From Heptranchias perlo (taxonomy: Eukaryota): a DNA stretch of 64,000 bases. The position numbers were made by a program, and so were the translations under genes. Under the pieces are notes generated by a model. That model was not told where the DNA came from. It did no database searches and saw nothing but the letters and a program-made list of their open reading frames with translations. Location: contig NC_090340.1 of assembly GCF_035084215.1 (NCBI RefSeq), positions 2,666,001 through 2,730,000 of the forward strand, read 5' to 3'. Shown piece by piece: positions 26,523 through 64,000 of this stretch (position 1 is the stretch's first letter; every line of letters begins with the position of its first letter).

Positions 26523-26800
26523 AAATGCAAAATTATAGATGTATATGAACGCCACCGTTTACCGACGTGTGCAATTTTATCATGACAATTTTACATAAGA
26601 CGTATCAACTCCAAATATGGACTAAGGAAATTGTAATGGAAATAAATTGACATAGAATTGTGATAAAAACGTGGGAACAGGGAGTAAGATTGACATAAGA
26701 TATTTAATATATCCTAGCTAGATTAATACCTACTGCAAGTGAATGCCCATTGAAACAATGCATTTTTCAAAAGTAACATTGTTACATGGAATTACACAGA

Positions 26801-29800: not shown

Positions 29801-30517
29801 GGAGGTATTGCTGCAGTTATATAAGGTATTGGTGAGACCGCACCTGGAATACTGCATACAGTTTTGGTCTCCATACTTAAGAAAAGACATACTTGCTCTC
29901 GAGGCAGTACAAAGAAGGTTCACTCGGTTAATCCCGGGGATGAGGGGGCGGACATATGAGGAGAGGTTGAGTAGATTGGGACTCTACTCATTGGAGTTCA
30001 GAAGAATGAGAGGCGACCTTATTGAAACATATAAGATTGTGAAGGGTCTTGATCGGGTGGATGCAGTAAGGATGTTCCCAAAGATGGGTGAAACTAGAAC
30101 TAGGGGGCATAATCTTAGAATAAGGGGCTGCTCTTTCAAAACTGAGATGAGGAGAAACTTCTTCACTCAGAGGGTGGTAGGTCTGTGGAATTTGCTGCCC
30201 CAGGAAGCTGTGGAAGCTACATCATTAGATAAATTTAAAACAGAAATAGACAGTTTCCTAGAAGTAAAGGGAATTAGGGGTTATGGGGAGCGGGCAGGAA
30301 ATTGGACATGAAGCTGAGTTCGGATCGGTCAATGCCCTATGGGTGGCGGAGAGGGCCCAGGGGCTGTGTGGCCGGGTCCTGCTCCGACTTCTTGTGTTCT
30401 TTAGATTTGTGGTTGGGATCAGATCAGCCATGATCTTATTGAATGGCGGAGCAGGCTCGAGGGGCCAATTGGCCTACTCCTGCTCCAATTTCTTATGTTC
30501 TTATGTTCTTATGTTCT
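26801..30517 (+). mobile_element. Young CR1 LINE, 5'-truncated within ORF1; ORF2 has a 1-nt frameshift near 29781
   Basis: ORF1 esterase part ends 27370; ORF2 pieces 27454-29787 and 29808-30311; (ttcttatg)3 tail; near-identical to 40313-44407. Confidence 0.97.
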
Positions 30518-31430: not shown

Positions 31431-33036
31431 CATCGCATTGTTTACATTTATTTTCAGCCAGTTTTTTCAAAGTAAGACAGCGTGCTACCATGCAGTGTTG
31501 AATAAACTGTAACTTGTCATTGATAACTTTAGGTAAATGTACTGACATGATTGTTTTATATATTGGGAGAGTACACGGTACTTTTACCTCTAGATTGAGA
31601 CTGAATCTACACCAACTGACCCTGAATGTCTCTCCATTCTCCCTACTGTGAGGGTCTTGCACGGAATGTTCTTGGCAAGCGTCGGCCCACACCATAAATT
31701 GACATTAAATTGGTAAACTCGCTGAAAGGGCACAAGAATGGTGGGTACAGGAAATGCTAATGTCGCACATGTGCCCGGTGATTTAGTGAGGCATATTTTG
31801 AGATAGAATAGAGGGAGCTCTCCACTGCCACCTATATCTGCCACGGTACAGCGTGAATCTAACATGGGTGGCATAAATAGACAAATGATTTTCTTTCCCC
31901 AGCACTTATATGCCTAACTTGAAAAACGAAGTTATTTGTTGAACGCTAAATCTTTTAACTAATTAGTTCACTGAAGGCTAAATTAAATATTACTAACATG
32001 GAACAACACATTGACTTTGACATTGAGTGGGGATCATAAATGAGTCAGCCGCTTGCTATGATTACATTTTATACTTTAATAGTTTTCTCCCTCGACAGGG
32101 AGTCATGAACATATCGGAAACATTACAATTAACGAGAAATAAACAGTAGAAAGATCAGCATCTGAAAAAGAAAGCTAAGCTGAAGTCTCGGATATAACCT
32201 CTCATGCCATTGATGTTAGATCCTATGGTGGTTTTCTCCCATTTTCTATTTTGATTTGAGATTGACAGAACTGTCGGGTTGGACTTTATTTTTTCGCTCT
32301 TTGTTCTGTTAGACGAGCCAAGGTTCTTTCCTTATTGATTCGCTTACGCTTTTCGTTCTCTTTAGGTTGTCATCTTTGGTAATAACCTATGCCATCCACA
32401 GCAATCAATTTTCAACCGTCCCTTCCATGGTCTGTAAAATCAAAGCGTTTTCCGGTTAACTGATGACCTGGATTAGTCAGCAGAGTGATGCATGAAAGCG
32501 AACGCGGTCAGCTGTAACTGAAGATTCAACGAATATGTTATTTGAATAATTAATATATCAATACCGGTATATCATTATTCAAATTGCACAATTTTTATTT
32601 CGAACCGTATCTTGCACAGTATTTTCTGCCAGTTCAGAGCGTCACCGAGGTGTGTAATTAAAAATTAATTAAAACTCTGTATCTAACCCGTGCTGCATTT
32701 ACCCTGGGAGATTTTGATCGGATAATGTAGAGGGAGCTTTACTCTGTATTTAAAACGTGATGTACCTACTCTGGCAATGTTTGCAGAGGGAAATTAGTTC
32801 ACATCCACCCCCTGCTGTACATGACTGGGAATGTTCAAAGCTGGTGTTGGGAATGATGAGGATTTGTTGATTTTGCTCAGTGGCCCCTCGTGCACATGAA
32901 AATAAACATTTACCAACAATCTAATCGTGCAAATTACAGGGTAATCGTGTAAGGCAAAGATTTGAAATATGCTCAGTTTTGGATCACATTCTTTTTACAC
33001 ATCAAGCATTTTCGAAAATGTACGAGAGAAACGCAC

Positions 33037-33080
33037 CCGTTCTTCGAAGTGTTGAGATCCCCCTTGGTCTCTGCGTGCGC
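33037..33080 (-). CDS. Ig receptor copy 1, cytoplasmic exon 1 (GARRDQGGSQHFEER)
   Basis: ttcattag acceptor, gtgcgt donor, 44 nt, phase 1/0; paralogous 44-nt exons at 51259-51302 and 60965-61008. Confidence 0.75.
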
Positions 33081-33513: not shown

Positions 33514-33630
33514 CTTTACAGTAACTGAGTTGGTAACTCTTCCCAATGACGGCGACGAGGGCTAGAAATATCAGTGCACCCCCTGTACATCCAGAAATCA
33601 GTAGGTAAGGATGGTTCGGGTGCACACTGC
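33514..33630 (-). CDS. Ig receptor copy 1, transmembrane exon (SVHPNHPYLLISGCTGGALIFLALVAVIGKSYQLSYCK)
   Basis: AG acceptor, gtaagg donor, phase 1/1, hydrophobic helix followed by Lys. Confidence 0.88.
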
Positions 33631-34347: not shown

Positions 34348-34656
34348 CTGGGTTAGACGTGGAATCAAAGTAAACAGCCACGGCTGGACTCTGCAGTGTG
34401 AGGTGAGACACGACACAGGTATAGACAACCCCGCTCTGGGCTGGCTGTGTCGCTTTCAAACTGCTGGAAGCTTCATACATTCCTTCCGAATTCAGCTTTT
34501 TAGTATTGGTGATTCCAGTCACAATGTTGGTGTCATTTTTATACCAAGTGAAGGTGAGAGACTCCGGGTAGAACTCGGCTGTTGCACACACAAGCATCAG
34601 AGCAGATGAGTTGGTTCCGGACACTTTGGGGGACAGTCTCACAGGTTCTGGGGAAG
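34348..34656 (-). CDS. Ig receptor copy 1, C1-set domain exon
   Basis: LVCATAEFYPESLTFTWYK and YTCVVSH C1 signatures; ctgcag acceptor, gtaaga donor, phase 1/1. Confidence 0.93.
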
Positions 34657-35336
34657 CTGCAGAACAAGGCAGAGAATACACTGATTGTCTGGACTCTGCT
34701 AATTTAGTCCGGTTTGGCGCTCAGTCTTCTTGACTATAACGGCGTAACTCTCGGTCACAAGTACAGAGATAACCACTGACAGGAACTGACTTGGATTGGT
34801 AGGGTCGCCATTTGCTTGTTAGATGATAAGATGATTCCAATTCACACTTTGATTACTGAACAATTCGAAATAAGATTCTTCCCATAACTTTCTAGACTAA
34901 AATGCGAACGATTCACAACCGTGTTGCAGTAACAGGAGAATGTATTTCAGTGCGAGTAGACATTCAGGCCGTCGCTGCATTGTGCTTAGTCCACGGAAAG
35001 AATTAGATTTAGATTAAACTCAGCAGCTTTTTGCTCTGTTTTATTATTGAGCAGCGTTTAGTAAATAGGCAAAATTTATTCAGGTAATATCAATTCAAAC
35101 TGTTCGCGTTAAGAATTGCAAATTTGGAACAAAGGGGCAAAATCATTACCGCCCAGACAAGTGGAACTTTAACCCCGGGATTATTGTAGGGGCAGGAAAA
35201 AACATTTTGTCCAAAATTGTAAAAAGGAAAAAAAAACTTGCTGGAAATTTGGTTCTGATGAAATGGCGGGAAGTGAGATTTGAGGGGATCAACCATGGAT
35301 CTGAATGGCCAGTCACAGCCTCTTCCATCCTTCAAA

Positions 35337-36195
35337 CATTTCCTCCCAATTCAACTTTTAAATGGTGTTGACCCCAGTCACAATATTGGTGTCATTTTTA
35401 TACTATGTAAAGGTGAGAGACTCCGGGTAAAATACCGCCATTTCACACAATAGAGTCGGAGCAGATGAGTTAGTTTCGGACACTTTGGGAACTAGTCTCA
35501 CGGGTTCTGGGAAGCTGTGGAACAGCATAGAGAATACACTGATTGTTTAGACTCTGCTGATTTAGTCAGGTTTGGCGCTCAGTCTTCTTGAATATAACAG
35601 TGTGACTCTCGGCCACATGTACAGAAATAAACGACTGATCGAAATTCGCCATTTGTTTGTTGGATGATACGATGATGCCAATTCACACTTTGGTTACGTA
35701 ACAAATTCGAAATAAGATTCTCCCCATAACTTTCTAGATTAAAATACGGACGATTCAGGATCGTGTTGCAGTAACAGGGGAAAGTGTTTCAGTGGGATTA
35801 GACATTCAGGCCGTCGCCGCTTTGTGATTCGACTACGGAAAGAATTAGATTTACATTTCAAGTCAGCAGCTTTTTGCTCTGTTTTATTATTGGGCAGGTT
35901 TTAGTAAATTGACAAAACGTATTCCGGTAATATCAATTGAAACTGTTCGCGGTAAGATTTGTAAATTTGTTACAAACGGGCAAAATTATTACTGTCCAGA
36001 CAAAAGATATATTCATCCCGTGACCATTGTGGGTGCGGGAAAAATAATTTTGTCCAAAATTATCCAGAGATGAAAAAAACAACTTGCTGGAAATGTAGTT
36101 CTGAGGGAATGGCCGGAAGTGAGGTTTGAGCAAATCATCCATGGAGCTGAATGAGGGAAGTGGCTGAATGTCCAGTCACAGCCTCGTTCACCCTG
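35337..36195 (-). pseudogene. Tandem duplicate (~859-bp period) of the 5' half of the C1 exon plus upstream intron; pseudo-exon ~35337-35514
   Basis: Aligns to ~34478-35335; keeps an AG acceptor but has a 1-nt deletion and TGG->TAG at the conserved Trp. Confidence 0.85.
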
Positions 36196-38271: not shown

Positions 38272-38583
38272 CGTACACAGCAAGCTTCGATCCGGTTCCG
38301 TTTACGATCCTGTTTCCTGCGTATCTCACTCCGCAGTAATAGAATCCGGAGTCGGAGACACGCACACTCAGGATCTGGAAGGAAGCCTCTCCGCTTTTTA
38401 AATGAAAGAATCGTTTTCTGCCGTCAGAACCTGGGTTTAATAAGTGTTTGTCGCCAAGTCTCCACCAATAAACATTCACATCTGAATTATCCTGGAGAGA
38501 GCTCGTCAGACATTGGAAGGTAATGTCTGCACCTGAAATCACACTGGTGCTTTCAGGAGTTTGGAAAACTTCAGCGGGAGCAA
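38272..38583 (-). CDS. Ig receptor copy 1, V-set exon with germline-fused J-like strand
   Basis: ITFQC, VYWWR, DSGFYYC, NGTGSKLAV; ttatag acceptor, gtaaga donor, phase 1/1; no RSS seen. Confidence 0.93.
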
Positions 38584-38708: not shown

Positions 38709-38754
38709 CTTTGTAAATAATCCCCAGGGCCCATATGTACTGACACACAAACAT
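38709..38754 (-). CDS. Ig receptor copy 1, leader exon (MFVCQYIWALGIIYK)
   Basis: ATG at 38754; 46 nt ending in a phase-1 donor aag|gtattc that joins the V exon in frame (..YKVAPA|EVFQTP). Confidence 0.78.
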
Positions 38755-40300: not shown

Positions 40301-40511
40301 CTCCGTGGAGATAAGAACATAAGAACATAAGAAATTGGAGCAGGAGTAGGCCAATCGGCCCCTCGAGCCTGCTCCGCCATTCAATAAGATCATGGCTGAT
40401 CTGATCCCAACCACAAATCTAAAGAACACAAGAAGTCGGAGCAGGACCCGGCCACATAGCCCCTGGGCCCTCTCCGCCACCCACAGGGCATTGACCGATC
40501 CGAACTCAGCT

Positions 40512-43454
40512 TCATGTCCAATTTCCTGCCCGCTCCCCATAACCCCTAATTCCCTTTACTTCTAGGAAACTGTCTATTTCTGTTTTAAATGTATCTAATG
40601 ATGTAGCTTCCACAGCTTCCTGGGGCAGCAAATTCCACAGACCGACCACCCTCTGAGTGAAGAAGTTTCTCCTCATCTCAGTTTTGAAAGAGCAGCCCCT
40701 TATTCTAAGATTATGCCCCCTAGTTCTAGTTTCACCCATCTTTGGGAACATCCTTACTGCATCCACCCGATCAAGACCCTTCACAATCTTATATGTTTCA
40801 ATAAGATCGCCTCTCATTCTTCTGAACTCCAATGAGTAGAGTCCCAATCTACTCAACCTCTCCTCATATGTCCGCCCCCTCATCCCCGGGATTAACCGAG
40901 TGAACCTTCTTTGTACTGCCTCGAGAGCAAGTATGTCTTTTCTTAAGTATGGAGACCAAAACTGTATGCAGTATTCCAGGTGCGGTCTCACCAATACCTT
41001 ATATAACTGCAGCAATACCTCCTTGTTTTTATATTCTATCCCCCTAGCAATAAAAGCCAACATTCCGTTGGCTTTCTTGATCACCTGCTGCACCTGCATA
41101 CCAACTTTTTGATTTTCTTGCACTAGGACCCCCAGATCCCTTTGTACTGCAGTACTTTCCAGTCTCTCGCCATTAAGAAAATAACTTGCTCTCTGATTTT
41201 TCCTGCCAAAGTGCATAACCTCACATTTTCCAATATTATATTGCATCTGCCAAATCTCCGCCCACTCACCCAGCCTGTCTATATCCCCTTGCAGGTTTTT
41301 TATGTCCTCCTCACTCTCTACTTTCCCTCCCATCTTTGTATCATCTGCAAATTTTGATATGTTGCACTCGGTCCCCTCCTCCAAATCGTTAATATAGATT
41401 GTAAAGAGTTGGGGACCCAGCACCGACCCCTGTGGAACACCACTGGTTACTGGTTGCCAGTCCGAAAATGAACCATTTATCCCAACTCTCTGCTTCCTGT
41501 TTGATAACCAATCCTCCACCCATGCCAGAATATTACACCCAATCCCGTGATTTTTTATCTTAAGTAATAATCTTTTATGTGGCACCTTGTCGAATGCCTT
41601 CTGGAAGTCTAAATACACTATGTCCACTGGTTCCCCTTTATCCACCCTATACGTTATATCCTCGAAGAACTCAAGCAAATTTGTCAGACATGACTTCCCC
41701 TTCATAAAGCCATGCTGACTTTGTCCTATTAAATTATGCTTATCTAAATGTTCCGTTACTGTCTCCTTAATAATAGACTCCAAAATTTTACCCACCACAG
41801 ATGTTAAGCTAACTGGCCTATAATTTCCAGCCTTCTGCCTACTACCCTTTTTTAATAACGGTGTTACATTAGCAGTTTTCCAATCTGCCGGGACCTCTCC
41901 TGAGTCCAGGGAATTTTGGAAAACTATCACCAAAGCATCCACAATCCCTACTGCCACTTCCCTCAAGACCCTAGGATGGAAGCCATCAGGTCCAGGGGAT
42001 TTATCCGCCTTGAGTCCCATTATTTTACTGAGTACCATCTCCTGAGTGATTTTAATCGTATTTAGCTCCTCCCCCCCGAGAGTCCCCTGTTTGTCCAGTG
42101 TTGGGATATTCTTAGTGTCCTCTACTGTAAAGACTGAAACAAAATATTTGTTCAGCATTTTTGCCATCTCCATGTTTCCCACCATTAATTTCCCGGTCTC
42201 ATCCTCTAAGGGACCTATGTTTGCCTTAGCCACCCTTTTTCTTTTTATATAACTATAGAAACTCTTGCTATCTGTTTTTATATTTTTTGCTAATTTCTTT
42301 TCATAATCTAACTTCCCTTTCTTAATCAATCCTTTAGTTACTTTTTGCTGTCTTTTGAAGAATTCCCAATCTTCTATCCTCCCACTAAGTTTGGCTACCT
42401 TATATGTCCTTGTTTTTAGTCGGATACTATCCTTGATTTCTTTACTTAGCCACGGGTGGCTGTCATTTCTTTTACACCCTTTTTTCCTCAGTGGAATATA
42501 TTTATTTTGAAAGTTGTAAAATAACTCCCTAAATGAACACCACTGCTCATGTACCGTCTTACCCTTTAATCTATTTTCCCAGTCCACTTTAATCAATTCC
42601 GCTCTCATACCATCATAGTCTCCTTTATTCAAGCTCAGTACGCTTGTTTGAGAATCAACCTTCTCACCCTCTAATTGGATATGGAATTCAACCATGTTGT
42701 GGTCGCTCGTTCCAAGGGGATCCTTAACTAGGACATTATTAATTAATCCTGACTCATTAAACAGGACCAGGTCCAAGGTTGCCTGCCCCCTTGTAGGATC
42801 AGTTACATACTGCTCAAGAAATCCATCCCTGATGCACTCAATGAACTCGTCCTCAAGGCTGCACTGCCCAATTTGATTTGTCCAGTTAATATGATAATTA
42901 AAATCCCCCATAATTATGGCTGTTCCCTTATTACATGCCCCGACTATCTCCTGATTAATACTTCTTCCAGCAGAGTTGTAACTATTAGGAGGCCTATATA
43001 CTACGCCCACTAATGTTTTTTTCCCCTTATTATTCCTTATCTCCACCCAAACTGTTTCATTATCTTGATGCTTTGTCCCAATATCATTTATCTGTATTAC
43101 AGTGATTCCTTCCTTTATTAACATAGCCACCCCACCTCCCCTTCCTTCCTGCCTGTCCTTCCTGATTGTTAAATACCCTGGCATATTTAATTCCCAGTCG
43201 TTGTCACCCTGCAGCCATGTTTCTGTAATGGCCACAAGATCATACCCATACGTAGTTATTTGTGCCGTTAACTCGTCCATTTTATTACGAATGCTACGTG
43301 CATTCAGATAAAGAACTTTCAAATCTGTTTTGTGACGCTTAGTTCCTGCTTTTTCCTTTTTTAACACTTTACCTATTACTCCATACCTTCTGTCCCTTCC
43401 TGTTACGCTTTCCTCTCTCTCCCTGCTCAGGTTCCCAACCCCCTGCCACTTTAG
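40512..43454 (-). CDS. CR1 ORF2: APE endonuclease plus reverse transcriptase (frame open from the ORF1 overlap)
   Basis: LYLNARS, ITETWL, MGDFN, SDHN, PQGSVLGP, FADD; the 951-aa track starts at GTG and the frame is open 31 codons further upstream. Confidence 0.95.
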   Translation of the reverse strand, partial: LKWQGVGNLSREREESVTGRDRRYGVIGKVLKKEKAGTKRHKTDLKVLYLNARSIRNKMDELTAQITTYGYDLVAITETWLQGDNDWELNMPGYLTIRKDRQEGRGGGVAMLIKEGITVIQINDIGTKHQDNETVWVEIRNNKGKKTLVGVVYRPPNSYNSAGRSINQEIVGACNKGTAIIMGDFNYHINWTNQIGQCSLEDEFIECIRDGFLEQYVTDPTRGQATLDLVLFNESGLINNVLVKDPLGTSDHNMVEFHIQLEGEKVDSQTSVLSLNKGDYDGMRAELIKVDWENRLKGKTVHEQWCSFRELFYNFQNKYIPLRKKGCKRNDSHPWLSKEIKDSIRLKTRTYKVAKLSGRIEDWEFFKRQQKVTKGLIKKGKLDYEKKLAKNIKTDSKSFYSYIKRKRVAKANIGPLEDETGKLMVGNMEMAKMLNKYFVSVFTVEDTKNIPTLDKQGTLGGEELNTIKITQEMVLSKIMGLKADKSPGPDGFHPRVLREVAVGIVDALVIVFQNSLDSGEVPADWKTANVTPLLKKGSRQKAGNYRPVSLTSVVGKILESIIKETVTEHLDKHNLIGQSQHGFMKGKSCLTNLLEFFEDITYRVDKGEPVDIVYLDFQKAFDKVPHKRLLLKIKNHGIGCNILAWVEDWLSNRKQRVGINGSFSDWQPVTSGVPQGSVLGPQLFTIYINDLEEGTECNISKFADDTKMGGKVESEEDIKNLQGDIDRLGEWAEIWQMQYNIGKCEVMHFGRKNQRASYFLNGERLESTAVQRDLGVLVQENQKVGMQVQQVIKKANGMLAFIARGIEYKNKEVLLQLYKVLVRPHLEYCIQFWSPYLRKDILALEAVQRRFTRLIPGMRGRTYEERLSRLGLYSLEFRRMRGDLIETYKIVKGLDRVDAVRMFPKMGETRTRGHNLRIRGCSFKTEMRRNFFTQRVVGLWNLLPQEAVEATSLDTFKTEIDSFLEVKGIRGYGERAGNWT

Positions 43455-44401
43455 TTTAAACCCTCCCCAACAGCACTAGCAAACACTCCTCCTAGGACAG
43501 CGGTCCCGGCCCTGCCCAGGTGCAGACCGTCCGGTTTGTACTGGTCCCACCTCCCCCAGAACCGTTTCCAGTGTCCCAGGAATTTGAATCCCTCCCCCTT
43601 GCACCATTCCTCTAGCCACGTATTCATTTGAAATATCCTCCTATTTCTACTCTGACTAGCACGTGGCACTGGCAGCAATCCTGAGATTACTACCTTTGAG
43701 GTCCTATTTTTTAATTTACCTCCTAACTCCCTATATTCTGCTTTTAGGACCTCATCCCCTTTTTTACCTATATCGTTGGTGCCTATGTGCACCACGACAG
43801 CTGGCTGTTCGCCCTCCCCCTCCAAAATGTTCTGTAGCCGCTCCGAGACATCCTTGATCCTTGCACCAGGGAGGCAACACACCATCCTGGAGTCTCGGTT
43901 GCGGCCGCAGAAACGCCTGTCTATTCCCCTTACAATTGAGTCCCCTATCACTATAGCTCTGCCACTCTTTTTCCTCCCAGCCTGTGCAGCAGAGCTACCC
44001 GTGGTGCCAGGAAGTTGGCTGCTGCTGCCTTCCCCTGATAAGTCATCCCCCCCAACAGCATCCAAAGTGGCATATCTGTTTGAGAGGGGGATGGACACAG
44101 GGGACCCCTGCACTACCTGCCTGCATCTCTTACTCTTCCTGGTGGTCACCCATTCACTTCCTGCCTGTATACCCTTTACCTGCGGTGTGACCAACTCGCT
44201 AAACGTGCTATCCACGAGTTTCTCTGCATCGCGGATGCTCCACAGTGAGTCCACCCGCAGCTCCAGCTCCGAGATACGATCGGTCAGTAGCTGCAGGTGG
44301 ACACACTTCCCGCACACATGGTCGGCAGGGACACTGGTAGTGTCCATGACTTCCCACATCTTGCAGGAGGAGCATATCACGGGTGCGAGGTCTGCTGCCA
44401 T
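43451..44401 (-). CDS. CR1 ORF1: zinc finger/leucine zipper plus SGNH esterase-like domain (316 aa from ATG 44401)
   Basis: CSSC..CGKC, GDS, HIGTND, DGLH motifs. Confidence 0.93.
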   Translation of the reverse strand: MAADLAPVICSSCKMWEVMDTTSVPADHVCGKCVHLQLLTDRISELELRVDSLWSIRDAEKLVDSTFSELVTPQVKGIQAGSEWVTTRKSKRCRQVVQGSPVSIPLSNRYATLDAVGGDDLSGEGSSSQLPGTTGSSAAQAGRKKSGRAIVIGDSIVRGIDRRFCGRNRDSRMVCCLPGARIKDVSERLQNILEGEGEQPAVVVHIGTNDIGKKGDEVLKAEYRELGGKLKNRTSKVVISGLLPVPRASQSRNRRIFQMNTWLEEWCKGEGFKFLGHWKRFWGRWDQYKPDGLHLGRAGTAVLGGVFASAVGEGLN

Positions 44402-51258: not shown

Positions 51259-52830
51259 CGGCTCTTCGCGATGGTCTGATCTTTCCCTATCATTCTGCGC
51301 TTCCAAATGAATGAAGTTGAAGACTTGCAATGAAGCATTTCATTATCTTAAAATACACTTCGGGGTAGATCGAATGTAAAGTATAACATGATCTTGATAG
51401 CACAGTTTAAGGAATTGATTGGATTCCGACCTGTATTTGACAATAGGACGGGATTGTTCAGCTTCCGATGGGCTTTGCGCACAGCGGGAGGCTGATTGGA
51501 AAATCGCAGGGTCACTACACACATTTCTCTGTTTATTGTCCTGAATGGACGGAAAAACGCACTCAATGAAAGTTGATTTTCCAATAACGATCCCGCCGAG
51601 TTCCAGACTCCGCCGCTGGCTTGGGGGCCTTGGGAAATTCCACTCCATTTTATCCAACAATTTAGAAATTCGAATCTATCGTTACACCAGTAGTAACGAA
51701 ACCTGTATTAAAAACATTCGTTTATATAAATTGCAACAACTAATCGGACTGAGATGACTGGGAAGGGTCCTTCATATTTTAAAACCCAGGATAAACTTAT
51801 ATCCACCAAGCGCCCCTGTTCCCGTGAGACAGTGTAACTGTAATTTGAACCGTTCAGTTACAATCCACTAACTTTCTCTTTACATGTAACAGAAAGTTTT
51901 CGCTTACTCTTTGAAAGTTGTGTTTACTTTAGTAAAAACACTAAATGATTCCTTGCTTTTATTTTTCGTTCTGAGGCATCGGTTCCCCATGGTGAGAGCT
52001 AACACCGAAAATACCAACCCGCCCCCTGCACATACAGAAATCAGCAAGTAACGGGAAATGTCACCATCTACAAGAGTTAGATGTAATGTATAAATATGAA
52101 GCAGTGCACTGTTCAATTCAACACGATCATGACTTAAAAGATCACAAATATTTTAATCAATTTTTCTATTTCAGTACTTTTACATTTAAGCTATAGTTTT
52201 ATGAAACAGAATGAAAATGCTGAGCTATGTTTAATTTTTTCATGCTTGACGAACAAGTTTTTTTTACCTTATCTTGCCTTAAACTCAAATCTGATTTTAT
52301 CCAGGTTTCCTGTTGAAATAAGACTGCGATATAAGGGGGTAATTGTGACTTTGTGCGTTTCTGTAAAACTGGTGATAGCGAAGTGGCAGCCCGTTTTACC
52401 TCACTTCCGATTTTTATTTCCATTTACCGTGTGATAATAATTAGTTTGTTATTTTATACAACGGCTAATAGCTGTTGCTAAAATTACAGCTTGCTGCAGA
52501 TTGCGGGCACGGTTTAAGGAATGCAGGAGACAGCGGTGCAACTCCAACGTGTTAAGACTTGGAACGGCAGGATGCGAGTTATCGCCCCACATTGCCCCAG
52601 GCATCAGTTCCACATCTCGACCGTGACTCCCACTTATCCAGGAGTTGCCGAACAACAGTTGCAGAGGCTTTGGAGTGAAATATCTGGCAGAAATCCACGA
52701 ATAGGGGTATCTGAGTGAAAGTTAGCACATGGGGGTGGGGATAACCGCAAACGGTTCTATTTGCGGGATAATGAAATCTGCAATCTGCGTTGGGGTAGGT
52801 GATAGTGTAAGTGGACGTTGGAGGATGTAG
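51259..52830 (-). pseudogene. Ig receptor copy 2 pseudogene (C1 3' remnant ~52788-52830, TM exon 51957-52067, cytoplasmic exon 51259-51302)
   Basis: TM LLISVCAGGGLVFSVLALTMG; C1 donor lost, TM donor is GC, cytoplasmic acceptor AG->GG; introns homologous to copy 3. Confidence 0.8.
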
Positions 52831-53749
52831 GTTATTGGAGGATGAAGGGATACAAATAAAAGGCGGGTAAATGGAGTTAAGGTACAGATTAGCCATTATC
52901 TGATTGAATAGTGGAACACGCTGTAGGCGCTGACTGGCCTGCCCCTGCTTGTTTGTTTGTATCTAAGAACAATTACGGGATGAAATTCGCCCCGGTACTA
53001 TCTGTAGTCCGTATAGATACGAGGCTTAACCTCATATCGAATTTCCTTATACGGGCGTTATTTTGAACAACGGAGGCTATGTTATCCCATGTCTTCGTAT
53101 CTAAGAGTCCAAGACTTGGAAAGAGTTAAAGTAAAACGTTAACTGCTGCAAAGTATCTTAACAAAATAAAGGAAGATGCTGAGCAAGATGCAACGACTGA
53201 AATATGTTGATGAGTGTGGCACAATGCACACCCATAGGTGGGAAGCAAGGGCGCAAAATTGGGCCGTGTAGCGCCCATTGTTTCGGCGCTGCACGGTCTC
53301 TCCGACATCCAAGACGGCGTTTTGGATGCGCATCCACGTTTCCTGCGTGACGTGCGCCAGACGCCATCTTGGTATAGTAGTTAGCGCATGCGCTAATACC
53401 GGACCCTGGCAGCATGTAAAGTAGGGAGAAAATGGCTGCAATCAGTGGGCAACGCTGATTTAAAGTGATACACACCATTTTCAACCTTAACGCTCAACTC
53501 AACGGACATTCTTATTCCCGACCCATCTAAACGTTTCTTACAGCGCTTGAAGGACCCCCCACCAGCGCTATTTAAAGGGGCCACACAGTTGTTGCAGGAT
53601 TATTGGACCTGGCTGCTGGAGGAGTAGGAAGTGATTTTGAAGCTCCCAACTCTTATTCAGAGTTCCTACACTACTTTTGAGGGGCTTTGGCAGGTACTGC
53701 CTTACGGGTCAGAAAGTTACAACCCTGTGGAACAACATTCCTGTCAACC

Positions 53750-54820
53750 ATGGGCAGTCTGCGAGGGCTCCCATTGGGCATTGAGCATGACTGAGAGCAT
53801 GCAGAGAGGCCACGCACAGTGGGTCAAGCTGCGAGGAGATGGAGGACGAGGAAGCCCAGCATACTGAGCAGGAGGCCCTACTCAATGAGTGCCTTCCGGG
53901 ATCAATTTTCTTACCTCAACATGACCGAGGGGGATTGCATCCGACACCTAAGGTTCACCAAGGATGCCGTCACCGAGATCTGTCAACTGGTGTGGCCACA
54001 ACTGCAGCCTCAGAGCAGGGCGAGGACAGCATTGCCTGTGGCTGTGAAGGTCATCGTGGCGCTTAATTTCTACAGCTCAGGATCATTTCAGGCTTCAGTT
54101 GGCGACGTGTGCAACATCTCGCAGTATGCAGTACACTGCTGCATAAGGGAGGTCACAGACGCACTGTGCCACATGAAGAACAGGTTCATCACCTTCCCTC
54201 TCAACAGAGACAATCAGAATGAGCGAGTGCGGGGGTTCACCCACATTGCTGGCTTCCCCATGGTGCAGGGTGCCATTGACTGCACACACATTGCCCTGCG
54301 TGCCCCGCACATCAACTCAGCTGTCTTCGTCAACCAAAAGGGTTTCCACTCCCTCAACGTGCAGCTGCTGCCCGAGCACACGCATTGAATCATGGAGGTC
54401 AATGCCCGCTACCCTGGGAGCAGTCACGATGCCTTCGTCATGCGGCAGTCCAACGTGCCAGCTATCTTTCACCTGACTCGGCAAGTCAAAGGCTGGCTAA
54501 TGGGCGACAAGGGCTATCCCGTCATGACTTGGCTCACGACACCGGTCAGGAACCCACGCACACGTGCGCAGCAGGCCTATAATGAGAGCCATGCTGGCAC
54601 ACGCAACATTGTGGAGCAGACCATAGACCTCCTCAAACAACGCTTCCGCTGCCGAGACCAGTCTGGAGGAGCCCTGCAGTACTCCCCTGAGAGGGTGGGC
54701 AGATTCGTGGTGGTCTGCTGCATGCTGTACAACCTCGCCATCATGAGGGACCAGCCTTTACCACCAATAATTGCAGAAGATCCTGAGCCAGAGGTGGAAG
54801 AGGAGGGGGAGAAGTGGTGA
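53750..54820 (+). pseudogene. Harbinger DDE transposase (HARBI1-like) with in-frame TGA at 53792 and 54386
   Basis: GAIDCTH, KGFHSLNVQ, PGSSHD, GDKGYP, RNIVEQT..LLKQRFRC in one frame. Confidence 0.92.
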
Positions 54821-55138
54821 TGGAGAGGAGGGGTTGGATCTGGAAGAGGAAGTGGAGGAAGACGCAAGGGTGCAACAGGAACCACATGCCTTGTCTGCAA
54901 GGGCTGTGCGTGCTCGCCTGATCCGTGCCCACTATCAATAATTTCAACTACATCCCCCAAGCCACCAACAGTCCTGCATTCCCCATCTTTCCCCTCCCAC
55001 AAGACAATCAAATCGTCCTCCATCTGATTACACATTGGTGTCCCTCTCAGCTCATTGCATAATTAAAAACAATCACCAAATGCAAAATCAAACTCTCATT
55101 TATGGATGAATAAATGAAATTATGCAAACATGATTGAA

Positions 55139-57038
55139 CTATTCGCCCATGTGCATGACCTTAATGTCTGTTGTCCTTGTGCCTTTACCTATCCTAGTGC
55201 TTCTACGAGGTACTTCCCCAGTGGCTGAAGCATGGGTGGTGGAAGGCTGCTGGCCTTCAATGGAGAAACGTGCAGATGGCCTTGGAGGACGACCTCGACC
55301 AGCTCTGGGCCTGGACGGCCCGGCTTCAGACTGCACCATCTCAATATGGGCTGCAGCAGTCTGGCCTGGCTGGCTGGGAGGCAACAACAGGGGCACTGGC
55401 AGAGTGGCAGGGGTGGGAACAAGAATGCTGTCGGCCTGAGAGAGGACAGCACATCTGGCTGCCATGGCGCCACTGCCACTCTCCCAGGGTGGCGCCTCAG
55501 CAATCGGCTGGAGAACGGATTGCTGGAGTGCTGTGACACCCTGGAAGCCCCGTTCCACAGTGGTCACCAGAACCATGATCGCAGCAGTCTGAGCTTCCAA
55601 GGCAGCAGTCTGAGCTGCAAATGCAGCAGTTAGACCATGGATGGCAGATGTTTGTGCTGCAATGGAAGCTGTGACATCAGTTATCAGACGCTGCATCATG
55701 GTGGGTTCCACAGGTGCGCTGATGAAGGTGAGCACCCGTTCCATTTTGGAAAGGATGGGCTCCAAGCTCTGCACAAAGCCCTGCGCCAAGTTGGAGCTGG
55801 ACTCCTCCATGTCCCTTCTCATTGTGCGCAGGTTTTCTGGCAGGCTTTCCAGTGCCCCAAGCATTTGTTGGTGTGCACCCATCAGCCGTCTTCTGTAGCC
55901 TGGCCCATCGAAATCCTCATCTGACTCCTCTGTTGCAGAACTAGTGAACGACCTCGCCCTCCGGTGAGCTGGGACCTGTGGTATCCATTCCCTCCACCCG
56001 GCTCCTGATCACTTGTGCTCGGTGTCTCATCACGTGCAGATCCCTCCTGTAACCTAATCTCTAAAGGACACGCAGTGTCAGTCTCTGAGCTGATGGAAGC
56101 AAGTGTCAGATCGAGTGCTGATGTGGCTTCAGTGTCCCCCTCCTCCTCCCCCACCTCCTCCCCCTCCTCCTCCGAGGGTGCTGTCACGTGTTCTTGGGTA
56201 TCTGCAAATTCAAAGGGAAACAGGTTGAGTTGTGGAGTGGGGAGAGGAGCAAGTCAGAGGTGTGTGCTGAGAGCATGTGCAGCACGTGAGTCAGAAAAGA
56301 TTATGGGAGGAGGGAGATGTGCAAAAGGAGAAGGAGCATTAGATATGCAGAGATCCCTTCATTGGGACCTTCAGCGCAGCACGTTGGCTGCAGCGACGGT
56401 CTGCCCAATGATCCGCAACACCATCTCCTCTAGGGGGTTGAGGACGTGCAGACGTGCCCGTCCAGCCTAAGGTCTCTCCTGCTGCCAGGTGTTATATATC
56501 ACCTTCTCCTGCAATACAGAGGAGAGTGTCAGTGAGTGTCCTGCAAGGTGTGTGGGTGATGTGCCTGTTGTGTGGTCGAATAGCTGCCAGTTTGTGTGGC
56601 TTGTGAGTGGTGGTTGTGTGGCCTGCAAGTGTGCTACTATGTGCAGGTGAGATGCAGCATTTGGTATGGATGGGCAGTGTTTGTTGGTGGGTGGGTGACA
56701 GGAGGTGTCGTGCATGGAGCATTGGTGCAGTTGGTAGGATGTGCCACTTAACACTTGTATTCACTCACCTTGACCAACTCATTAAACGTCTTCCGGCACT
56801 GCACTCACGTGCATGGTGCAATGCTCCTAGCATTCACCTCCTGCACCACAGCCTGCCAATGCCTACACAGCTGTAGTGTGAAGGGTCTCCAGCCACCCTG
56901 CGGGTACATGCATGCCCTCCTTTGGTCCACGCCTTCCACCAGGGCCTCGAGAGCATCGTCAGAGGATCATGGAGCCCTCTATCTTGCCAGTGCAGCTACT
57001 CACAATGCCCTTCACCTAGTTGGCTGTGTATCTGCCAT
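55139..57038 (-). pseudogene. Harbinger Myb/SANT-like partner gene (spliced, several stops)
   Basis: Exon 57038-56769 reads RAP*SSDDALEALV...W..V..EVN..CT*VQCRKTFNEL followed by gtgagt; further ttgcag acceptors near 56509 and 56202; low-complexity C-terminus. Confidence 0.8.
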
Positions 57039-59810
57039 TTGAAATGTGCCTGCACCTTTAAGTAGTACAGGCTGCTGATGTCGTGCGCTGTGCACGCCCC
57101 ATTTCCAATTTCCTCATTCTCCGTGCAATCTTTCAGCAGCGAGGGCTGCGCTTGCTGCATGGAGATTTCATGGTAAGTAGCAGGTAGCACGAAGTTCACG
57201 TTCTCGTTTTAATGGCATGGCGCTACCATTGCCCAGAACAGACCCTTATCCAATTTCCACTCCCACCAACTGTTTATATTTCGGTGAAAGTGATGACAGA
57301 CCATCGTGTGAGGGTAAGGGTGGTGGTTTAAAAATGACTGAAGACTGGGGGACAATGTTAAATAAACAGAATCCCTGAGTACATTTGCAAAGGATATTAT
57401 TCTTGTAATGAAGATATTTTTTACGCATTGAAAAGTGTTGAGTCACGCACCCTGCCACGTTATTAACCAGTGACATCAAAGACCTGCAAAAGTGGTTTGC
57501 TGATGGTCTAATACACAATTAAGCTTTACTCTGTCCGGCACCAAAACCATTCGCCCAATTTATCTCATATTTCCCACTCTTTTTACTGCACTGTCGGAGC
57601 TGTCGGGTGTTTAATAATAAATTAACCCCAAGCCCTGTCTACCTGCTGTGTTGGTTAAAGTGGGCGTGAAAGATCCGAAGTCTCTGCTCATTTCAATGGA
57701 CATCTGAATCGGTCGGTTTCTGTAACGGGCAGCGATATTCCGGTAATATTCTCCCCAGCTATTAAATAACACTCGACTTTTGGATTGATTGTTCATTGCT
57801 TGACATAATCACACCTTACACGTGTAATCATTTGCTAATTTATTTGTATTTTTGGATTTGATCTTTAAACATATAAAATGTCATTGTCGGTCCCAATCAG
57901 GGCAGCGTGAACTGCGATTACAAACAGAGCGCGATGTTCACATAGTGCTTATCGGTGGACTTCCGTCTGAGGATCTACTGGGCGGATTGCAGCAAGCAAA
58001 ATCTGGCGGGACTTTTGCACTCCAGTAACGCAACTCGCTGGATTTTCCTCCCATTTAAATTAATGGGAGGAACATCTATCGGTTCTGTTAAGGGCGCGTG
58101 AGCCTCCCCGCCTGATTTTCCTTCCTGCCTTCCGCCTAGAGGATAATTATGAAGATCTAACCCCGATATCTAAAGGAGGAAGAGATCCATTCATCAGCAC
58201 CTACTTCCCTCATCCCCACGTGCACAAAAGGAATTTTACACAGGATCCAGGAAAACTGGGACAATCGTAGGCTGGCAAGTGGACCCAAACTAAGATTTTA
58301 TCCTCCACGCTATAACTAATATATATATATATATATATATGACCAATCATTGAGTGTTTGAAACTTGAAACTTCATCACTTTCAGGTACCTTCCTGCTTA
58401 TTCTCTGGTCGCAGTTCGGACTGATTAACGAGAGGCAACTCATAGAAATCCTGATGCCCTAGAATTTGCTGACTACTAAATCACATCCATCTACCTTATC
58501 TTGCCTGTTTCTGTAGTGCAATGCATATTAAACAGCACTGACAGCCTAGCAGCCTCGCTCACAATACTTAGCATTGCACATTATATGGATACACGAAAGA
58601 AATGTCTCCAGAACTTAGGAAAATATATATTCCACGTGAGACACACGGGAAGATCTGTATCTCATTGAGATCCATGATATTTACAGATTTTGGAAAACGA
58701 GCATTTCCCAGAGCAATGAGTTTGGAGCATTGTCAACGGTCAGCAGATACCGACTTTCGCAAATGAAGGATAAAGCCAGAGAGCGGGACACCGCCAAGTT
58801 TGAAAAGAGGAGGAGAAGAGGAAAATAATGACAACCTGACATCAAGCTTGGGTTTTTAATCTGCAGCTTCTGAAATATTTTATTGTTCAGCTGATGTTGC
58901 AGGAAACGCACCAGCGAAAGAAACCAAATGATAACAAGTTTTACAATCAGGATATTACAATGTTTATTATCAAATTGTTACTTGATTTAAACAACGAGTT
59001 CTAAGCTATTTATGGTTAAACACTAGTATAGCGGTTTGGTGGCTATTTTTATTTTAAAATTGCTCATAAATTTCCGCTGTGCGCATCAATATTGTAAACA
59101 TCATTAGAAAAGAATAGTTAGCCATTCCAATGCGTAAAATTCACAGGGTGATCTTTCCTCTGAAAGCGAAATATGTTTAGACTAAAATATTGTTTCTTGT
59201 CGCTAGCTTCATCGCGATTTATTTCATTCGGTATTTTTAGGAGCCAACAGTCACGATGTCGCTACACCTAAGGACCAGCACATTTCTTAGCCCAATATTA
59301 TTAAACTATGTTTGAGATTGAAATACAATACTGCACGTTTATCGAACATTAACTAAACGTTTGTTGCTGATTTAACACGGCCACATGTTAGGAGTGAATG
59401 GACTAAATACGGTATTTAAAAATGATTACAAGTAATTTTATCTTGCTGAATACAAATGAGTAAAACAGGTTATAAACAGCCACAACGTATGATGTTAACG
59501 CTCTATTCTGCGGACAATCTGCTAATAGCGGGTAACATCGGAATACAGATTCCGTTAAACGAATTACAAGGACATAACAAAAACAAGGCCCGGAGCTGCT
59601 ATAAACAGCCAGGACTTCTCACAATGGAGTGTATATCCAACATGCCGCCCGGCGTAAAACTGGCGTTGCGGATCGGGCGCCCATTATAAAAACTTCCCGA
59701 TTACCAAAACCAGATTAATCCCATTTGTTCCACCGTGATGTATTTTTTGGTTAAGCGTGGGTGATGTGTGTCTCTTTGTTCTGATTCCCAGCCGGACGCT
59801 GCCCTCTCCT

Positions 59811-59888
59811 TTAATGTTTATCCCTGGACGGTTTTTTGGAACTGGTCAATACTATTGCATCGTAAGGCGCGTTTGCATTCGCGTCTCT
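59811..59888 (-). CDS. Ig receptor copy 3, putative terminal cytoplasmic exon (RDANANAPYDAIVLTSSKKPSRDKH*)
   Basis: tccctgcag acceptor, phase 0 matching the previous donor, one YxxI motif. Confidence 0.5.
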   Translation of the reverse strand, partial: RDANANAPYDAIVLTSSKKPSRDKH

Positions 59889-60964
59889 CTGCAGGGACTG
59901 AAATTCGAACTAGTTATTCAGTCATGTTGTTCGTTCAATTGAGCGGGCTCCTCGTTCAGACATTCTGAAAAGGAGCACCGACCGGTATATCGCCGGTCCG
60001 CGGTGCCTGATTTTCGAGTCATTTAAATTAATAAACAAAAAAGTGCAGCGGTGACCCATGATTTAACGACTTGTGAACGCCCGATCGTATTAGCCTGTCC
60101 GTTACTGTTCAAACACAGCGATATAAGGAAGGTTAGGGATAAGAACCGGCCATTTAGCCTTGAATGTACAGAGCAGAACAGTCAAGGCTAAATCTATTTG
60201 CAGCCCACCATTGTTGCAGAAAAAAAAAAGCGTGGACCGATTAGATCCTTTATGAAGATTAACAATATAAAATGTGAAGATTTATACATAGTCCAAATAG
60301 TGGTGCAATAATTATACAATAAATGGAATTGAATTAGCACAGAGCGACTTAGAAAGAGTCTGGGTCTCACCATAGTCAGATTACTATCAATAGCCCGGCC
60401 CTTAAATAACTAGTAGAATTCTAGGACATATAACCAGAACATCAAATTCAACAGGTCGTACGAAAGCTTCAAAATTAACTTGTGGAGCACATTTAGAATA
60501 TTACGTTCACTTTCCCACCAAAACTGAAAAAAAGAAATATAAATATGCAGCTAAGAATGAAGAAAAAGAGCAAGGCTGAGCCTAAATGTAGAAGGGTAAG
60601 TTAGGAAGAGGATTCGATGCGCCGACTCTTCCCATACTATAAATAAAGTGGTTAAGAACCTCATTAAAATTTCTACAATATTCAGTGATTTGGATACGGT
60701 GGACCGGATTATTGTTGCAGTCTTTACCAAGCTGCAGTTGATGTAAATGGGAAATAAATCGACAACAGACATAAGGAAAACACTTCCTTGATAGACTCAG
60801 ACAGATTTGGGATAATTTTCTAGACAGGGTATTGGAGGCAAACTCATTAAAATGAGGCCGGGCATGTTGTTACATGAAATAGATTGAAACGCTCTCAGCT
60901 GATTCTGGAAACAACAATACATATTTACATGTGATATAAGTTAGGATCAATCAAGTAAACATAC

Positions 60965-61008
60965 CGGCTGTTCACTGGGGTTAGGTCTCTCCACAGAGTT
61001 CTCCTCTC
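60965..61008 (-). CDS. Ig receptor copy 3, cytoplasmic exon 1 (GEENSVERPNPSEQP)
   Basis: aacag acceptor, gtatgt donor, 44 nt as in copy 1. Confidence 0.78.
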
Positions 61009-61815: not shown

Positions 61816-61929
61816 CTTTAATTTTCTTTAATTGACATCGCTTCCCAATAATGAGAGCCAGCATTAGAAATACCAAACTACCCCATACACATCTGGAAAT
61901 CAATAAGGAACCGCTGATGTTGTCACGAT
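61816..61929 (-). CDS. Ig receptor copy 3, TM exon with intramembrane Arg (DRDNISGSLLISRCVWGSLVFLMLALIIGKRCQLKKIK)
   Basis: ttttag acceptor, gtaaga donor, phase 1/1. Confidence 0.88.
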
Positions 61930-62727
61930 CTAAAATATTAATGTAAAGTATATAAATATGAAGGATATGTCCAAAATTATCACCCAATCATAACCATTAG
62001 CATGGATTCTTATTTGAAAATTATTCTCATAAACGCTGAAAGAACAGAGATATTTTAATCAATCTTTGCTCTTTTATCTTCTTCTTCGCGAAAGTATAGA
62101 TTCTTTTCTCTCAGATCTAATTTTTATCCTGGCTTCTTCTTGATGATATGATTGTGACTGAAAGTGAATTTTGTACAGTAACTAATAGATGTTGCTAAAA
62201 TTACAGTTTGCAGCAGATTGTGAGCACGGTTTGTGGAATGCAGGAGACGGCGGTTGTGCTCCAAACAGTAAGGCACGAGTTACTGCCCGTTACTGCTCCA
62301 AGGGCCACTTCCACACCTGAGCCGTGACTCCAGGAGGTACGGTGCAATGGGGCAGGAGACCCCGAACAGCAATCGCAGAGTTCTTGGAACCTGATTAAAA
62401 GTGAATAATTGTAGCCAGTAGTCTTACACTTTGACGGATTTAAAACCCGGTGAAAGAACCGGAGTAGAACAACTGATGAGAAAGTACAATTTGCCCAACC
62501 CGAAGAGAGTCGTAGCAAAGGGTTCTATCGCGCGATAACTGAGATCTGCTATCTTATCTTTAGGGTAGGTGATGATGTAAATGACCGAGGCTTTGGAGCA
62601 GAACACCTGGCATAAATCCACGGTTAATGGTATTTGAGTTAAACACATGGTGGGGTCAGGGCCAGGGTGGGGGAGCGATCACAGTAATCGGTTCTATTTG
62701 CAGGATAACTGAGATCTGCTATCTTAC

Positions 62728-63033
62728 CTATGGGATAGGTGACAATGTGAGTGGCCGTGGCTGGAATTTGGAATGTAACGTGAGACACCAGGCAGGTATA
62801 AACAGTCCCGGTTGGAACAGGCGTATCATCCAAACGGCTGGAAGCTTCATATAGTCCATCGGTGATGAGTTGTATAACGTTACTTATCTCTGTTGTAGTT
62901 TTGGTGCCATCTTTATACCAAGTGAAGGTGATATTCTCCGGGTAAAACGGAGATGTCGCGCACACAACTGTAAGAGACGCAGATGAATCCTTTTCATGTT
63001 CTTGAGAGGTAATTTTCAGCGGAGTTGGCGGAA
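62728..63033 (-). CDS. Ig receptor copy 3, C1-set exon
   Basis: [26 protein letters not shown]; ttctag acceptor, gtaaga donor. Confidence 0.93.
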
Positions 63034-63957: not shown

Positions 63958-64000
63958 CCCATACTGTTAAATGTGATCCCGTTCCGTTTCCAGCTATTCT
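63958..64000 (-). CDS. Ig receptor copy 3, 3' end of the VJ exon (RIAGNGTGSHLTVW), truncated by the window edge
   Basis: J-like GxGSxLTV followed by phase-1 donor g|gtaagt. Confidence 0.85.

Follow-up and report, generated by a model that had tools for sequence, protein, structure and literature searches.

A transmembrane arginine marks probable activating members of a clustered, non-rearranging VJ-C1 receptor family of cartilaginous fishes

Genes at the locus

We analyzed a stretch of 64,000 nucleotides (the window) from the shark Heptranchias perlo (RefSeq assembly GCF_035084215.1, contig NC_090340.1, positions 2,666,001 to 2,730,000), and all coordinates below are positions within it. An earlier annotation made from the letters alone, here called the original prediction, had picked out three related transmembrane (TM) segments, copies 1, 2, and 3, had noted an arginine (Arg) in the third, and had proposed three paralogs forming a cluster of activating and nonactivating receptors. 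The segment with the Arg is the TM exon of a receptor of cartilaginous fish in which a germline-joined V and J (VJ) and one C1-set immunoglobulin (Ig) domain precede the membrane (VJ-C1-TM), and this receptor is probably the activating type of a large family. The three motifs were recovered, all on the minus strand, with LLIS-R-CVWG of copy 3 beginning at 61906, LLIS-G-CTGG of copy 1 at 33604, and LLIS-V-CAGG of copy 2 at 52047. The contrast between Arg and glycine (Gly) or valine (Val) does fall on a single TM position, with codons AGA, GGA, and GTA in copies 3, 1, and 2, respectively. As judged by alignment, the three TM stretches are homologous (copies 2 and 3 share 71.5% identity over 165 nucleotides in a self-BLAST, E = 5e-11). 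However, the locus holds two genes and one relic within 32 kb, not three intact paralogs.

In copy 3, the TM exon occupies exactly 61816 to 61929 (114 nucleotides; minus strand, as are all exons and exon remnants described here), with AG/GT ends and phase 1 on both sides, and its Arg codon lies at 61894 to 61892; a Pfam search of this exon gave no match. Upstream are the C1-set exon (62728 to 63033; Pfam C1-set, E = 8e-13; AG/GT ends), whose closest named relative is an H. perlo protein with 96 to 97% identity, and the 3′ end of the V exon (63958 to 64000), located by tblastn of relatives, with a germline J-like G strand (NGTG) and a GT donor in phase 1. On the cytoplasmic side, we predict a micro-exon of 44 nucleotides (60965 to 61008, phase 1 to 0), one of three candidates from a splice-site scan, picked because its length equals that of the corresponding exon of copy 1 and because it aligns to the relic exon of copy 2. 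The predicted last coding exon (59811 to 59897), the best match of the family tail profiles, stops early and holds one nonconsensus tyrosine (Tyr) motif, APYDAI; an Arg receptor of Heterodontus ends with the same last exon. The predicted tail has ca. 52 residues and lacks an ITIM (immunoreceptor tyrosine-based inhibitory motif). All visible exons are open and have canonical splice sites. In three contig sets of one sample, presumed to be RNA, a 221-nucleotide contig matches 62829 to 63034 apart from 3 mismatches and ends where the exon does, which is weak evidence for the C1 exon.

Copy 1, a gene of six exons running from 38754 to 32405, is complete; its splice sites are canonical and its frame has 284 residues. 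It comprises a leader exon (38709 to 38754; GT donor, 93% identity to the leader of the relative P0025), a single-exon VJ domain (38272 to 38583; Pfam V-set, E = 4.5e-11), a C1-set exon (34348 to 34656; Pfam C1-set, E = 8.8e-14), a neutral TM exon with Gly at the Arg column (33514 to 33630), a cytoplasmic exon of 44 nucleotides identified by alignment to relatives (33037 to 33080), and a last coding exon (32405 to 32431) with 8 residues before the stop and no Tyr motif. P0025, 86% identical over 283 residues, is likewise short-tailed and also ends early. No ITIM exons were found downstream of copy 1 by profile and motif searches. Since copy 1 is intact yet neutral and short-tailed, the window contains no inhibitory partner for copy 3. 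Both genes carry partial duplicates of their C1 exons. In copy 1, an 840-nucleotide tandem duplication (34471 to 36153, 81% identity) includes a truncated C1 exon broken by two stops (35316 to 35515, by self-BLAST), and the copy 3 intron retains a short, decayed duplicate of the 3′ end of the C1 exon (62515 to 62598; 81% over 73 nucleotides by self-BLAST, and alignment); such duplicates suggest that small duplications have been frequent in the cluster.

Copy 2 is a relic and not a gene copy. It consists of a remnant of the 3′ end of a C1 exon (52760 to 52823), adjoining a short interspersed repeat (about 52860 to 52949), an orphan neutral TM exon (51957 to 52067) with an intact acceptor and a donor that reads A|GC instead of G|GT, and a first cytoplasmic exon (51259 to 51302) whose acceptor AG has become GG, with a weak in-frame AG 3 nucleotides further on. 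Six-frame profile searches of the window gave no V exon and no whole C1 exon for it: the one V match was at 38575, apart from a nonsignificant 5.9-bit trace at 63997 of the end of a V, and the C1 matches were confined to 63031, 34654, and, in broken form, 35510. Profile and motif searches found no ITIM exons downstream of copy 2. Its TM is nearest to the neutral TMs of a clade that includes ITIM-tailed members, namely those of P0003 (69%) and the ITIM-tailed P0002 (66%), and because of this affinity, copy 2 is probably the remnant of a neutral-TM, inhibitory-type neighbor.

A family of VJ-C1 receptors in cartilaginous fishes

Searches with the C1 of copy 3 and the V of copy 1 recovered 24 and 5 proteins, respectively. 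A profile of 17 sequences found 91, of which 85 matched at the family level (E at most 3e-38), and every species name visible among these 85 was that of a shark, ray, skate, or chimaera. An exhaustive profile search added 40 short proteins; the 12 that were looked up all came from cartilaginous fishes, and the other 28 were not looked up. Three longer multidomain matches belonged to a skink, a lungfish, and a turtle, and none of the family-level matches was identified as a V-C1 protein of a tetrapod. The genes are already in RefSeq under misleading names. The automatic NCBI labels are inconsistent (SIRPα-like, Ig λ-like, tapasin-related, or B7-H6-like), and many read SIRPα-like. An indirect sign suggests that the family members of one species lie on one chromosome. 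A keyword search of open-access full text turned up no description of a VJ-C1 family in chondrichthyans that comprises both ITIM and Arg types, although the shark NCR3 papers, Ohta 2019, Dornburg & Yoder 2022, or supplements of genome papers may list these genes; PMC4536121 does not mention sharks.

The features of rearranging Ig or T-cell receptor (TCR) genes are missing. V and J form a single exon, and no heptamer of a recombination signal sequence lies near copy 1 or copy 3. In 115 V domains, the F/W-G-x-G motif occurred in 6, G-x-G in 104, and an N-G-S/T sequon in 80. A J-like strand that mostly lacks the aromatic residue and mostly bears an N-glycan sequon argues against a Fab-like V-V pairing. 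Some gene models predict isoforms. The RefSeq isoforms of the Arg receptor of Heterodontus francisci (P0007, P0010, and P0222) include one skipping the TM exon, and thus predicted to be soluble, and one lacking most of V; skipping of the TM exon also occurs in P0231 and P0057.

For the survey, we used 133 proteins with the family C1, all relatives being automatic gene models. A TM could be called in 106, and dropping 3 isoform duplicates left 103 members, including the two genes of the window.

Position of the arginine and of the cysteines

In the best hydrophobic windows of 19, 21, and 23 residues, the Arg of copy 3 takes position 4, 5, and 7, respectively, and in the 21-residue helix it is followed by 16 uncharged residues. 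The original prediction would have failed had the Arg lain outside the bilayer; three window lengths place it inside, but the best 17-residue window begins just past it and leaves it out. The distance to the inner face recurs in the family: 16 to 17 uncharged residues follow the Arg in 19 of 21 Arg rows (one of them an isoform duplicate). Except in the shortest window, the Arg thus lies within the N-terminal portion of a type I TM helix, and this predicted placement is the geometry of receptors coupled to ζ or FcRγ.

Of the cysteines (Cys) of the membrane region, the original prediction had described the one next to the variable residue as invariant and a juxtamembrane one as common to the three copies, and it had suggested possible disulfide-linked dimers. 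The Cys after the variable residue is indeed shared by the three copies, yet only 52 of the 103 members have it. The juxtamembrane Cys occupies one column in copies 2 and 3, whereas in copy 1 this column holds Tyr and the Cys comes five residues further on; a juxtamembrane Cys is found in 41 of the 103 members. All of these residues lie on the cytoplasmic side. The Cys of copy 1 are accounted for by two Ig pairs, one intramembrane, one cytoplasmic, and one in the leader, and those of the visible part of copy 3 by the C1 pair, one intramembrane, and one cytoplasmic. With no stalk Cys in copy 1 or in the visible part of copy 3, the idea of an extracellular interchain disulfide dimer is unsupported and was rejected. 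Palmitoylation of the inner Cys seems more likely than an interchain bond.

Arginine and ITIM-rich tails are mutually exclusive across the family

Within the window, the contrast of Arg with Gly and Val alone is no proof of pairing, because it involves one Arg gene, one neutral gene with a short tail and no ITIM, and one relic. The idea of activating and nonactivating members in one cluster found its support in the relatives outside. At the Arg column, the 103 members had 41 Gly, 24 alanine, 20 Arg, and no lysine (Lys). Distal Tyr motifs were counted as [ILVSMT]-x-Y-x-x-[LIV]. At least two of these ITIM-like motifs were present in none of the 20 Arg members but in 37 of the 83 others (p = 5e-5), and one motif in 3 of 20 and 51 of 83, respectively. 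The p value stayed below 3e-4 whichever of the six combinations of column tolerance and threshold was used. The median tail was 34 residues in Arg members versus 77 in non-Arg members. Arg members therefore combine a basic TM residue with a short tail that never holds two ITIM-like motifs, as expected for activating receptors. The inhibitory counterpart, a neutral TM with motifs resembling the ITIM or the immunoreceptor tyrosine-based switch motif, also exists in the family, with no such member in the window. At the level of the family, the survey of paralogs that the original prediction had called for thus supports the paired-receptor interpretation, with Arg and ITIM-rich tails apparently mutually exclusive.

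Because kin share traits, a tree was built from the ectodomains only. Arg is only slightly clustered on it: 17 changes were counted against a mean of 20.2 in shuffled data, with 8 of 300 shuffles at or below 17 (22 rows, one-column tolerance). Among 14 independent pairs, motifs present in the partner were missing from the Arg member 7.9 times on average and the reverse never occurred (median p = 0.008). Restricting the set to the 88 models with both V and C1 left the count at 0 of 20 Arg members versus 28 of 68 others (median p of the pair test, 0.03), and in this set a single Arg clade was rejected by the approximately unbiased test (p-AU = 8e-5).

Near-identical ectodomains on opposite signaling ends

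Arg members occur at many places in the ectodomain tree, frequently next to ITIM-bearing relatives with 91 to 97% identity, so that similar ectodomains are found on opposite signaling ends. Two Scyliorhinus canicula proteins, P0060, which has Arg and a short tail, and P0232, which has a neutral TM and a Tyr-rich tail, share 95% identity in their ectodomains, and in Mobula birostris the pair P0052 and P0229 reaches 94%. The C1 of copy 3 is 97% identical to that of the ITIM-tailed P0002, versus 51% for the TM exon; against the Heterodontus Arg receptor P0222, both values are 68%. Heptranchias P0152 is split in this respect, with a C1 91% identical to that of ITIM-tailed P0151 and 54% to that of P0020, and a TM 84% identical to that of P0020 and 17% to that of P0151; both P0151 and P0152 lack most of V, and therefore a model error is possible.

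A tree of the TMs alone gives only a hint, since it is built on 34 columns and has few resolved forks. It contains one well-supported group of 13 (11 with Arg and 2 with glutamine [Gln]), whose ectodomains belong to several clades, and the other Arg TMs sit among neutral ones. This double pattern points to two likely routes to activating members, by old activating TM modules placed on new ectodomains and by fresh point mutations to Arg. The two Gln members of the group, P0076 and P0132, have possibly lost adaptor coupling.

Surrounding DNA

The first part of the window (1 to 23700) is dense in satellites, with tandem arrays of 32 bp (77 copies), 34 bp (116 copies), 67 bp, and 47 to 49 bp, which suggests that the edge of the cluster borders heterochromatin-like DNA; six-frame profile searches found no family exons in this part. 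Copy 1 is flanked by two inverted copies of a 3.7-kb long interspersed nuclear element (26797 to 30512, plus strand, and 40311 to 44024, minus strand), which we take to be CR1-like. They are 99.1% identical and encode a first open reading frame with a GDSL esterase and a second with endonuclease and reverse transcriptase, the latter uninterrupted in only one of the two copies. Such inverted copies could promote inversion of the copy 1 gene. Between copy 3 and the copy 2 relic (about 53200 to 57500) lies a GC-rich multicopy element, matched by many contigs at about 90%, with one weak match to a DDE transposase (E = 0.006, below the cutoff). An imperfect palindrome of 160 nucleotides (57978 to 58139, 71%) falls in a stretch that is partly masked as repeat.

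Proposed mechanism and alternatives

We consider it probable (roughly 70%) that copy 3 is an activating, ζ/γ-coupled member of a large, clustered, non-rearranging VJ-C1-TM paired-receptor family of cartilaginous fishes. Its Arg would pair in the membrane with the two aspartic acids (Asp) of a ζ/γ-type dimer bearing ITAMs (immunoreceptor tyrosine-based activation motifs), most likely a CD3ζ-like one, and the receptor would signal via Syk/ZAP-70. Siblings with a neutral TM and two to five Tyr motifs would recruit SHP-1/2 and inhibit. Both steps follow established ITAM/ITIM biology. A third class, neutral and short-tailed like copy 1, may act in adhesion or as decoys. Gene conversion or recombination would keep the ectodomains alike, and activating TM/tail modules would both arise afresh through point mutation and pass from one ectodomain to another, as exploitation of inhibitory members by pathogens would lead one to expect.

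Sharks have CD3ζ. FcRγ was reported missing from the cartilaginous fish genomes of that time (2014 screen, PMC4016189; PMC5742104), and for this reason a CD3ζ-type dimer is our best guess for the adaptor of copy 3, by analogy with known receptors. NKp30, NKp46, CD89, and TCRα are described as an Arg-Asp-Asp class that uses ζ or γ (PMC13107469), and FcRγ-binding receptors with a basic residue are described as having Arg in the N-terminal TM segment, at position 3 in FcαRI (PMC1440944).

Several observations weigh against this reading. Besides the reported absence of FcRγ and the 17-residue window that excludes the Arg, the pair test on the reduced set of 88 models is weaker (up to p = 0.5), 46 of the 83 non-Arg members also lack two motifs, and tail length and motif count are linked, not independent measures. 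The relatives are all automatic models, and P0002, P0151, and P0152, which lack V, could be chimeric or cut short. Most of the V exon of copy 3 and its leader lie beyond the window, with only the last 43 nucleotides of V visible, so that the gene can be called intact only in its visible part. Finally, the presumed-RNA contigs matched mostly repeats, with no cover of the TM and no informative exon joint, and are silent on the expression of the TM exon.

The alternative that survives best, although unlikely, is that the Arg lies at the outer face of the membrane with no role in adaptor binding, and that short-tailed members are adhesion molecules, B7-H6-like ligands, or decoys. The shortest hydrophobic window would fit this, as would the many neutral members that are short-tailed too and a modeled V-C1 fold that ties with B7-H6 among many Ig proteins. 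Yet the Arg keeps a fixed distance from the inner face and recurs in many separate ectodomain lineages, never with two ITIM-like motifs.

Quite improbable, in our view, is a single gene with alternative TM/tail modules, in which the C1 of copy 3 would splice either to the Arg TM or, skipping ca. 10 kb, to the neutral TM of copy 2. The copy 2 acceptor is intact and in phase, with an open read-through frame; in P0002, a C1 with 97% identity precedes a neutral TM and an ITIM-bearing tail, and two skates have near-identical ectodomains (V 97%, C1 94%) with different annotated TMs (P0001 and P0015). However, a C1 remnant and an intron of its own mark copy 2 as derived from a whole gene, its donor and next acceptor are damaged with no ITIM exons after them, and its TM has only 66% identity to that of P0002. 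The pairs of opposite type that we looked up have separate accessions and are not labeled as isoforms.

We attach a similarly small probability to copy 3 being a decaying pseudogene, with the Arg type functional only in other species. The region is rich in relics (copy 2, two broken C1 duplicates, and transposons), and the V exon of copy 3 is largely out of view, but the visible exons are open with canonical splice sites, the full-length P0222 of Heterodontus has the same TM type and last exon, and one probable RNA contig matches the C1 exon. Least probable of all is an adaptor of the DAP12 or DAP10 kind, in the manner of SIRPβ, which uses DAP12 (PMC3533184): SIRPα is the best non-antibody-like PDB match, but type I DAP12 partners are described as carrying a central Lys (the basic residue is at positions 7 to 12), whereas FcRγ partners have an N-terminal Arg, a change of Lys to Arg lowers KIR-DAP12 assembly to 15% (PMC1440944), and no family member has Lys at the Arg column.

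The family has wider implications. According to the 2014 screen, sharks have no Fc receptor genes and no genes of the leukocyte receptor complex type, i.e., KIR/LILR (PMC4016189), which left open the source of balanced activating and inhibitory recognition on shark natural killer (NK) and myeloid cells. A multigene VJ-C1 family that is present in sharks, rays, and chimaeras and has both ITIM and Arg types is a direct candidate. Its on/off pairs would illustrate how innate recognition in sharks is balanced with receptors resembling TCR chains in shape. Should the Arg couple to ζζ, a non-rearranging V-C1 receptor would share its membrane assembly with TCRα, which bears on the origin of antigen receptors. 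The repeated gain of Arg at one column is also a clear example of activating receptors arising by convergence. A more far-reaching version, which we regard as doubtful, is that the family is an expanded and still extant germline counterpart of a TCR chain, never rearranged by RAG and coupled to ζζ via a TCRα-type outer-TM Arg, with a repertoire made by duplication and activating/inhibitory TM/tail swaps. It would then be the main paired system of shark NK and myeloid cells, replacing KIR/LILR, and a living model of pre-RAG antigen-receptor signaling.

Comparison with known systems

The fold does not single out any one family. The best PDB sequences for the family profile were UrIg2 (E = 1e-33), an IgA model, and, third, SIRPα (E = 3.5e-27). 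The C1 of copy 3 matched UrIg/UrIg2 best (E = 2e-15), and the V of copy 1, searched as a single sequence, gave weak generic Ig matches. With the AlphaFold model of the relative P0003 (pLDDT, 75.8), Foldseek returned antibody and TCR chains with a poor global fit; in VIA-align, many Ig proteins were tied at Z of 13 to 15.5 (B7-H6: Z of 14.9, root mean square deviation of 4.1, and 193 aligned residues), hence the statement above. The ESM Atlas returned generic V/C1 clusters.

The SIRP ectodomain is V-C1-C1. The shark family resembles it in joining a VJ-type V to a C1-set ectodomain and in having three signaling classes in one family, which in SIRP are the inhibitory SIRPα, the activating SIRPβ (via DAP12), and the nonsignaling SIRPγ (PMC3533184). 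It differs in having one C1 instead of two (the ectodomain of copy 1 and of typical members consists of a single V and a single C1, and a few models repeat domains) and in its outer-TM Arg, in contrast to the central Lys with which the activating SIRP member engages DAP12. The window contains no flanking genes for synteny.

NKp30 (NCR3) has a single V domain directly before the TM and no C1, unlike the shark family, in which a C1 exon stands between V and TM, and we know of no inhibitory twins of it. It was not among the 60 PDB matches listed for the V of copy 1. The two are alike in a germline VJ domain and in a TM with Arg in its upper half; in NKp30, this Arg is coupled to ζζ or ζγ (PMC13107469).

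UrIg and UrIg2 are also elasmobranch, non-rearranging, and built of a single-exon VJ with C1. However, UrIg2 has nine C1 domains in the nurse shark and forms an Fc-like dimer (PMC12227049), whereas the receptor family has one C1, dozens of members, and ITIM and Arg signaling types. The non-rearranging VJ-C1 architecture as such is of a known kind (PMC10751288, PMC11599192), shared with PRARP and other tetrapod genes (PMC10751288).

With LILR/PIR, FcαRI, and GPVI, the family shares an N-terminal TM Arg in activating members and ITIM tails in inhibitory ones; their domains, though, are of the C2 type, and they were reported absent from sharks (PMC4016189). The shared Arg is probably convergent. 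We take this to be a real paired-receptor family, which would work like SIRP and LILR and is classed as neither.
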